From a virus (lineage: Duplodnaviria > Heunggongvirae > Uroviricota > Caudoviricetes): a stretch of DNA of 10,003 nt. The notes under the pieces were generated by a model, which saw only the letters and a list, made by a program, of their open reading frames with translations, was not told the DNA's origin and did not search any database. Made by a program: the position numbers and the translations under genes. Location: IMG/VR virus record IMGVR_UViG_2711768001_000003; one strand, given 5' to 3'. Of the stretch, positions 3,800 to 4,110 are shown one piece after another (the stretch's first letter is position 1; every line of letters begins with the position of its first letter).

Positions 3800-3876
3800 G
3801 GCCCTTTAGCTCAGTTGGTCAGAGCGAGCGACTCATAATCGCCAGGTCGCTGGTTCAAGTCCAGCAAGGGCCACCA
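3800..3876 (+). tRNA. tRNA with CAT anticodon, most like tRNA-Ile2 (lysidine-modified, reads AUA; ileX/ileZ-like)
   Basis: It folds as a cloverleaf: acceptor GGCCCTT/AAGGGCC, anticodon loop CTCATAA, T-arm GCTGG-TTCAAGT-CCAGC, encoded CCA. The anticodon and T arms resemble recalled E. coli ileX far more than elongator tRNA-Met. Confidence 0.85.
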
Positions 3877-3877
3877 A

Positions 3878-3954
3878 CCACCACTAGCTCATCCGGATAG
3901 AGCATCAACCTTCTAAGTTGACGGTGCGAGGTTCGAGTCCTCGGTGGTGGGCCA
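3878..3954 (+). tRNA. tRNA-Arg (anticodon TCT, reads AGA/AGG)
   Basis: Cloverleaf: acceptor CCACCAC/GTGGTGG, D-arm GCTC-ATCCGGATA-GAGC, anticodon arm TCAAC-CTTCTAA-GTTGA, T-arm CGAGG-TTCGAGT-CCTCG, discriminator G, encoded CCA. It has an unusual C1:G72 pair and diverges from host argU. It starts 1 nt after the previous tRNA. Confidence 0.85.
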
Positions 3955-3956
3955 GC

Positions 3957-4032
3957 GCCGACTTAGCTCAGCAGGCAGAGCAACTGACTTGTAATCAGTA
4001 GGTCACCAGTTCGATTCCGGTAGTCGGCACCA
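3957..4032 (+). tRNA. tRNA-Thr (anticodon TGT)
   Basis: Acceptor GCCGACT/AGTCGGC, anticodon loop CTTGTAA, encoded CCA. It differs from recalled E. coli thrU by only two D-loop bases. It starts 2 nt after the previous tRNA. Confidence 0.88.
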
Positions 4033-4035
4033 TAT

Positions 4036-4110
4036 GCGGGCATCGTATAATGGCTATTACCTCAGCCTTCCAAGCTGATGATGCGGGTTCGATTCCCGCT
4101 GCCCGCTCCA
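4036..4110 (+). tRNA. tRNA-Gly (anticodon TCC)
   Basis: GCGGGCATCGTATAATGGCTATTACCTCAGCCTTCCAAGCTGATGATGCGGGTTCGATTCCCGCTGCCCGCTCCA is, as far as I recall, identical to E. coli glyT. It starts 3 nt after the previous tRNA. Confidence 0.9.

Follow-up and report, generated by a model that had tools for sequence, protein, structure and literature searches.

Shiga toxin (Stx) phages of the 933W and 2851 type carry a trio of transfer RNA (tRNA) genes, ileZ-argN-argO, that lies 3′ of the antiterminator gene Q and upstream of the toxin or lysis genes; the annotated order in Stx phage 2851 is Q, ileZ, argN, argO, stx2. An array of four tRNA genes, for Ile2 (anticodon CAU), Arg (UCU), Thr (UGU), and Gly (UCC), occupies the same slot, on the same strand and with similarly tight spacing, in a 10,003-nucleotide (nt) stretch of viral DNA (IMG/VR record IMGVR_UViG_2711768001_000003), referred to here as the window. 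The window is a lambda-like (lambdoid) prophage of Escherichia coli/Shigella. As in the Stx-phage cluster, the first gene of the array is of the ileZ lineage and the second is built on the unusual C1:G72 scaffold of argN. The array is nevertheless a composition variant of the trio: its slot-2 anticodon is UCU rather than the UCG of argN, argO is replaced by a thrU-type Thr gene and a glyT-type Gly gene, and no toxin gene is present in the readable part of the window (positions 4244–4769 are masked).

Phage 21 displays the same overall order, namely Q, pR′, a Q-binding element, a terminator, tRNA genes (tRNA-Asn and tRNA-Thr), S21 pinholin, SAR endolysin, and Rz. It shares a Thr-UGU tRNA with the window, and its lysis genes are ∼92% identical, but it carries tRNA-Asn and lacks Ile, Arg, and Gly tRNAs. 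The same Q/tRNA/lysis order is also annotated in the prophages of strains SMS-3-5, 042, and UMNK88. The T-even cluster is the textbook example of tRNAs that serve minor codons ending in A. RB27 carries all four anticodons of the window (CAU, UCU, UGU, and UCC), and the T-even spacers of 1–10 nt are comparably short; the T-even phages differ in being lytic, in carrying 8–10 tRNAs, and in showing only ∼82% similarity to the Thr and Gly genes of the window. Several T4 tRNAs also lack an encoded CCA. The source-type sequence of the last two array genes is found in the host operon thrU-tyrU-glyT-thrT-tufB, in which Thr likewise precedes Gly. There, however, tyrU and a 116-nt spacer stand between the two, and thrT and tufB follow.

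The Four tRNA Genes

ARAGORN identifies exactly four tRNA genes in the whole window, on the + strand only. The Rfam tRNA model scores them at 70.5 (Ile2), 56.4 (Arg), 69.8 (Thr), and 64.9 (Gly) bits, the gathering score being 29, and given E-values of 3e-10 to 4e-14 the four calls are far beyond chance. An encoded CCA terminates every gene, and the intergenic spacers are, in order, 1, 2, and 3 nt. An initial annotation, prepared from the letters of the window, had described four CCA-encoding tRNAs with these positions and spacers, which ARAGORN, Rfam, and the sequence confirm (Table 1).

Comparison of each gene with its K-12 counterpart (glyT, thrU, ileX/ileY, or argU) divides the array into two halves. 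The Gly gene is identical to glyT (75/75), and the Thr gene matches thrU at 74 of 76 positions, with U16C and U20C, both in the D loop, as the sole differences; its anticodon arm is that of thrU, unchanged. The CAU gene, in contrast, agrees with ileY at 71 of 77 positions, and the Arg-UCU gene with argU at only 58 of 79, with a C1:G72 pair present. Both the near or full identity of Thr and Gly to host genes and the divergence of Arg had been noted in the initial annotation and are borne out by these alignments. The four anticodon loops (CUCAUAA, CUUCUAA, CUUGUAA, and CUUCCAA) are those of ileX/ileY, argU, thrU, and glyT.

The CAU tRNA retains C4:G69 and C5:G68, which we take to be TilS determinants, and an identical gene carries the RefSeq annotation tRNA-Ile; the tRNA would thus read AUA after lysidine modification by host TilS. 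Phage copies of the ileZ lineage, that of the window included, possess G26, A27·C43, and A44, whereas the host genes possess A26, G27·U43, and U44. Differences from the ileZ of phage 2851 are confined to the D loop and one base of the T loop. The Arg tRNA keeps A20, C35, U36, and G73, presumably the ArgRS identity set. Its scaffold is that of argN (anticodon UCG), and the alignment shows no relation to Stx-phage argO. The earlier assignment of the first two tRNAs to the Stx-phage class therefore holds for the link as such and for the ileZ lineage; the Arg gene is a homologue of argN, not of argO, although UCU is the anticodon of argO.

The same scaffold is common to a Lys-UUU tRNA that takes the same slot in the SMS-3-5, UMNK88, and PPompW prophages. 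The IMG/VR sample comprises at least 120 loci (L020–L139), and all IMG/VR figures given here refer to the 120 loci listed. Among these, the UCU allele of the C1:G72 scaffold is present in 14 and the UUU allele in ∼48. The UUU allele (L006 2371–2447, L011 3095–3171, and IMG/VR loci) displays U73, a compensatory G3:C70 pair, and C33, where U33 is nearly universal. Counting the Stx-phage argN, the C1:G72 phage scaffold bears three anticodons (UCG, UCU in the window allele, and UUU), which looks like anticodon switching inside one prophage tRNA lineage. thrU-type bodies with other anticodons were also observed. A thrU-type body with a UCU anticodon is found in phage SerU-LTIIb (L009 1122–1197), where it belongs to a duplicated Thr-Gly unit ahead of the LT-IIb toxin genes, and one with a UUU anticodon in two IMG/VR arrays of the form Ile2-Lys-“Lys”-Gly (L095 and L138). 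Saks and co-workers reportedly interconverted Arg(UCU) and Thr(UGU) tRNAs in the laboratory in 1998 through a single anticodon mutation.

Codon Demand

Relative to a host reference of 14,790 codons from annotated K-12 core genes, the phage genes of the window favor the codons that the array reads. ACA accounts for 25% of their Thr codons versus 10% in the host (p = 2.5e-6). Among Gly codons, the share of GGA is 15% versus 8% (p = 0.003) and that of GGG 26% versus 12% (p = 1e-6). The corresponding values are 11% versus 4% for ATA among Ile codons (p = 0.0017) and 6.6% versus 2.3% for AGA among Arg codons (p = 0.004). When four prophage regions with this array family are pooled (7,409 codons), ATA, AGA, AGG, ACA, CGG, GGA, and GGG head the list of 59 synonymous codons ranked by enrichment, and six of these seven are read by the four array tRNAs. 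The naive probability of six cognate codons in the top seven of 59, 1.6e-7, is descriptive only and overstated, since rare codons co-vary. The IMG/VR loci (196,148 codons) give the same ranking, with an excess per 1000 codons of +8.6 for ATA, +8.5 for ACA, +8.2 for CGG, +7.4 for GGA, +6.2 for AGA, and +5.4 for GGG. Overall, the cognate codons are used 2–5 times more by lambdoid genes than by host core genes.

According to the initial annotation, the Thr and Gly genes are not accounted for by codon supplementation. The data do not support this statement: ACA, GGA, and GGG are as over-represented as AUA and AGA. Given this enrichment, a host thrU-glyT locus that most genomes carry only once (the median is one place per genome), and the presence of the same four anticodons in RB27, supplementation accounts for the Thr and Gly genes just as well as for the Ile and Arg genes. 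The cassette probably supplements four host tRNAs that are in short supply and whose codons are over-used by the phage genes.

Two observations weigh against this interpretation. Phage lambda, which has no tRNA genes, shows the same skew (family shares of 0.18 for ATA, 0.16 for AGA, 0.21 for ACA, and 0.18 for GGA); such a skew is therefore a general trait of lambdoid phages and does not depend on the tRNAs. Furthermore, prophages with Thr and Gly as their only array genes use ATA and AGA as much as carriers of Ile2 and Arg do. Since Thr-Gly-only loci and lambda share the skew, the notion that array content is tuned to the codon usage of each prophage was rejected. The cassette is a helpful accessory, untuned to the genome in which it resides.

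Spread, Conservation, and Origin

Positions 3700–4243 of the window recur with 100% identity in a prophage of E. coli FDAARGOS_944 whose replication module and Q gene differ from those of the window, and the four tRNA genes of that cassette are already annotated in RefSeq. The window as a whole is less well represented: the best complete E. coli genome covers 57% of it, and none covers at least 80%. A 55-nt probe for the Thr-Gly junction, which is unable to match the host genes, retrieved 1,051 places in 869 of 5,426 complete E. coli genomes. In the IMG/VR sample, 46 loci contain Thr-Gly alone, 35 contain Ile2-Lys(UUU)-Thr-Gly, and 14 contain the Ile2-Arg(UCU)-Thr-Gly of the window. The Thr-Gly spacer is TAT in 118 of the 120, on different prophage backbones. 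The Arg sequence of the window recurs unchanged in 12 loci, its Thr variant (U16C, U20C) in 22 of 119 copies, and 53 Gly copies are identical to glyT. Among species-representative genomes, the exact Arg tRNA pattern was retrieved only from E. coli ECMA0423 and Shigella flexneri SFBU1023, with three arrays each. In both strains (L013–L018), the three are separate Ile2-Arg-Thr-Gly copies in different prophages, and E. coli CFSAN029787 contains six matching places for the array.

The Thr and Gly genes are thus ordinary parts of many prophage arrays, an outcome that the initial annotation had named as one that would count against its proposal, and, with their junction present in 869 of 5,426 genomes, the array is not unusual. 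It is a known kind of element, ordinary and already annotated in public genomes. A literature search on ileZ/argN/argO and on lambdoid tRNA-Thr/Gly arrays returned no relevant papers.

Between cassettes, the tRNA genes are 84–100% identical, while leaders and trailers align at only 49–70%. Paired changes accompany this conservation: C6:G67 is replaced by U6:A67 in Gly copies of at least 34 IMG/VR loci, and the slot-2 alleles differ by A3:U70 versus G3:C70. Conserved genes in diverged flanks, together with paired changes, are the pattern of presumably functional tRNA genes on a recombining module, and the Thr and Gly genes would be host-type sequences kept intact through purifying selection.

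A recent capture from the host thrU-tyrU-glyT-thrT region, as put forward in the initial annotation, is unsupported in that form. The 30-nt stretches on either side of the Thr and Gly genes show no similarity to those of the host, and no tyrU remnant, host flank, or host spacer was detected in the cassette, where TAT stands in place of tyrU and 116 nt. The Thr-TAT-Gly dimer is widespread. Because Salmonella thrU and glyT match the window genes exactly as well as those of E. coli, the time of a capture cannot be read from sequence identity. A recent capture fits less well than one old origin of the dimer and its subsequent spread.

tRNA-Targeting Defenses

When P2 Old aborts the growth of lambda, it acts mainly through cleavage of the host tRNA-ThrU (UGU), with cut sites at paired CNG motifs (positions 28–30 and 40–42) in the anticodon stem (Govande et al. 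2025, PMC12445682). Rescue is afforded by phage Thr-UGU tRNAs, including the tRNA-Thr of lambdoid phage 21; for resistance, an altered CNG motif has to be combined with a shortened stem, and the tRNA-ThrU of the host “offered little to no protection” (PMC12445682). The Thr tRNA of phage 21 (Thr21) is divergent, and its U28/A42 and G27·A43 mismatch amount to an altered CNG motif and a shorter stem. The Thr tRNA of the window shares the UGU anticodon of these resistant tRNAs but has a host-type, sensitive arm. Its C28-U-G30 and C40-A-G42 are exactly those of thrU, so that no CNG motif is altered, and the stem is not shortened, its five pairs from 27:43 to 31:39 all being Watson-Crick, as in thrU. 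With an anticodon arm that is intact and thrU-like, this tRNA fails on both determinants of resistance. It could act against P2 Old only through mass action, against which the published thrU control argues.

HepS of Gifsy-1 offers a second comparison. Its trigger is siphovirus tail-tip proteins, Thr(TGT) is only a secondary target, and cleavage occurs in the anticodon loop (PMC13043305); the loop of the window Thr, where HepS cuts in Thr(TGT), is the same as that of the host. Across all four tRNAs, no anticodon-loop change relative to host isoacceptors was found and hence no evasion signature of the kind reported by van den Berg et al. 2023 (PMC10264068). A term search of the PARIS paper gave no mention of Thr or Gly targets. 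The initial annotation had speculated that the Thr and Gly genes buffer against tRNA-targeting toxins or defense nucleases. That idea has gained a published precedent in related tRNAs (PMC12445682), which makes it a good guess where the family is concerned. The Thr copy of the window lacks the resistance determinants.

Several relatives differ in this respect. Five of 119 thrU-type prophage Thr copies (L026, L027, L032, L048, and L050) display G42U or G42C together with U43C. These changes cost the tRNA its 3′ CNG motif as well as two pairs of the anticodon stem, and resistance to P2 Old is reported to need both effects together. The Thr tRNA of phage JLK-2012 (L010 2995–3070) is chimeric, its first 25 nt being those of Thr21 and the remainder of thrU type. 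The tRNA-Gly(UCC) of the window (4036–4110) and K-12 glyT (L002 674–748) likewise contain the substrate motif published for P2 Old, as C28-A-G30/C40-U-G42 and A37. Host tyrU shares the motif, and neither Gly nor Tyr is listed as cleaved in the main text of PMC12445682; since tyrU has the motif yet is absent from that main-text list, the CNG motif by itself is weak evidence of cleavage.

Proposed Mechanism and Alternatives

Flanked by Q, with its pR′-like promoter and leader, on one side and by the lysis genes on the other, the array lies on the strand of the late transcript, directly after an intrinsic terminator. Annotations of phages 21 and 2851 show the order Q-terminator-tRNA-lysis/toxin as well; the array thus sits where lambdoid phages usually carry tRNA genes, within the Q-dependent late transcript. 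The most likely mechanism, which we favor with moderate confidence, is Q-dependent co-transcription with the late genes, processing by RNase P and exonucleases, and a raised dosage of four minor isoacceptors. Upon prophage induction, Q-modified RNA polymerase would pass the terminators and transcribe the array within the late transcript; both this step and RNase P maturation are suggested by position. RNase P would then cleave every 5′ end, and host 3′ exonucleases would remove the 1–3 nt beyond each encoded CCA. Host enzymes would modify the tRNAs, with TilS acting on the CAU tRNA, and would aminoacylate them; the known identity elements all appear intact. The outcome would be additional copies of four minor isoacceptors reading AUA, AGA/AGG, ACA, and GGA/GGG, with the Thr and Gly genes acting by dosage, like the Ile and Arg genes. 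The cassette itself would be a dispensable accessory, moved between prophages through recombination.

The cassette might instead replace host tRNAs that are destroyed by defense nucleases acting on lambdoid phages, such as P2 Old (tRNA-ThrU), HepS (Thr tRNAs), and PARIS, PrrC, or colicin D (Lys and Arg). The rescue from P2 Old by phage Thr-UGU tRNAs (PMC12445682) speaks for such replenishment, as does the location of the phage 21 Thr gene, in the same slot and ahead of a lysis cassette of the type found in the window. The secondary cleavage of Thr(TGT) by HepS (PMC13043305), the Lys-UUU allele on a non-host scaffold in sister arrays, and the five G42/U43 variant copies point the same way. We still consider it unlikely for this array: the Thr anticodon arm is that of thrU, with intact CNG motifs and a 5-bp (base-pair) stem, where altered motif and shorter stem are both required and host ThrU gives little or no protection (PMC12445682); Gly is identical to glyT; and all four anticodon loops are those of the host, with no evasion signature of the PMC10264068 kind. 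A more specific version, which we regard as distinctly improbable, holds that about one-sixth of E. coli genomes keep the host-type Thr-UGU and Gly-UCC pair to counter Toprim nucleases of the Old type. Both tRNAs carry paired C28-N-G30/C40-N-G42 motifs and A37. Massive late transcription from replicating phage DNA might out-titrate cleavage, or the thrU-type lineage might serve as a reservoir of recurrent resistant alleles, of which the G42U/C and U43C variants would be examples. If true, the cassette would be mainly about inter-prophage warfare (P2 versus lambdoids) and not about codon usage.

Alternatively, Thr and Gly could be near-neutral passengers of a mobile cassette, recently captured from, or subject to ongoing gene conversion by, host thrU and glyT. 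Their 97–100% identity to the host genes and their shared order with thrU-tyrU-glyT-thrT would follow, lambda manages without any tRNA, and decay is visible in relatives, with D-stem mutations or deletions in the slot-2 genes of UMNK88 and PPompW and an insertion in the UMNK88 Thr gene. This is doubtful in view of the missing host flank, tyrU, and host spacer, of one Thr-TAT-Gly junction shared by 869 E. coli genomes and 118 of 120 IMG/VR loci, which indicates one old origin, and of tRNA genes that form conserved islands, with compensatory paired changes, in unalignable flanks. The tRNAs could also act mainly as RNA-processing punctuation, that is, as RNase P sites at which the leader/antirepressor part is cut away from the lysis and structural mRNA, whose stability would thereby be set. 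The array does lie exactly between the upstream regulatory/antirepressor module and the lysis genes in one transcript, and with such tight spacing RNase P cuts would define all ends. One tRNA-like structure would be enough for this purpose, yet four anticodons and their identity elements are conserved together, and the anticodon set tracks codon demand; we consider punctuation very improbable as the main role.

The finding carries little weight on its own, the array being one more copy of an accessory module common in lambdoid prophages of E. coli/Shigella. It is useful as a clean negative control: its Thr-UGU gene occurs naturally in a phage and has the P2-Old-sensitive anticodon arm of the host. 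This control shares its slot with the resistant Thr of phage 21 and has rare relatives that lack one CNG motif and two stem pairs. Contrasting the sensitive, resistant, and G42/U43 alleles in a P2 Old assay would tell dosage from resistance as the driver of retention in temperate phages.

Genomic Context

The coordinates of the array and its surroundings are collected in Table 1. The open reading frames (ORFs) of the window start with a DnaB-type helicase, RusA, and antiterminator Q; 3′ of the lysis genes, they continue with an HNH endonuclease, the small and large terminase subunits, and the portal protein.

Table 1. Features of the Window in and around the tRNA Array
Feature	Position	Strand	Evidence and remarks
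Late-gene antiterminator Q	2159–2566	+	ORF; same position annotated “bacteriophage antitermination protein Q” in related prophages
pR′-like promoter (2571–2600), then isrK leader RNA and terminator (2662–2678)	2571–2683	+	Promoter/terminator scan, Rfam
Intrinsic terminator, stem 3686–3707 plus T tract	3686–3715	+	Terminator scan; left edge of conserved cassette
Cassette leader	3716–3799	+	Weak promoter-like site only (3761–3790, 9/12 matches)
tRNA-Ile2 (CAU), ileZ type	3800–3876	+	ARAGORN, Rfam, alignment with phage 2851 ileZ and ileX/ileY
tRNA-Arg (UCU; AGA/AGG), phage argN-type scaffold	3878–3954	+	ARAGORN, Rfam, alignment
tRNA-Thr (UGU; ACA), thrU type	3957–4032	+	ARAGORN, Rfam, K-12 comparison
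tRNA-Gly (UCC; GGA/GGG), identical to glyT	4036–4110	+	ARAGORN, Rfam, K-12 comparison
Non-coding trailer of the same conserved cassette	4111–4243	+	3700–4243 100% identical to FDAARGOS_944 prophage
Phage 21-type lysis genes: 3′ end of S21-like pinholin (to 4871), SAR endolysin (4871–5368), Rz/Rz1 (5365–5829)	4770–5829	+	ORFs

The pR′-like promoter reads TTGACC-18-TATATT, with 10 of 12 matches in the promoter scan, and by analogy with the annotated pR′-terminator-tRNA order of phage 21 it is the probable late promoter. The isrK match scores 77.5 bits in Rfam. Further Rfam matches between Q and an antirepressor ORF (3041–3610) are c4-a1b1 (2594–2646), C4 antisense RNA (2709–2792), and sRNA-Xcc1 (2926–3009), in addition to isrK itself (2607–2683). 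Taken together, positions 2594–3610 look like an antirepressor control module of the P1 immI or Gifsy-1 isrK-anrP kind, situated in the late leader upstream of the tRNAs.

Similarity to other prophages begins at the terminator that precedes the array: L013 matches from 3686, and the FDAARGOS_944 prophage (L001) has the same GCGGGTTTTTTTATACCTG. The cassette leader is 100% identical in FDAARGOS_944 and only ∼55% alignable in SMS-3-5 and UMNK88. A dedicated tRNA promoter at 3761–3790 was considered but is not supported, as the site has only 9 of 12 matches and its −35 region lies beyond the block conserved in other cassettes. A second promoter-like site (4024–4051) was rejected, its TATAAT falling within the D arm of the Gly gene.

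Downstream, a run of N spanning 526 nt (4244–4769) covers the 5′ portion of the S21-type pinholin gene and the greater part of the spacer between the tRNAs and this holin. The equivalent of this masked stretch in the FDAARGOS_944 prophage (L001 6545–7090) is unannotated non-coding DNA with terminator-like hairpins. The lysis region is 92.4% identical to that of phage 21, where the lysis genes are annotated. The conserved trailer contains a perfect 14-bp palindrome, ACACAATATTGTGT, at 4145–4158, 35 nt 3′ of the Gly gene.

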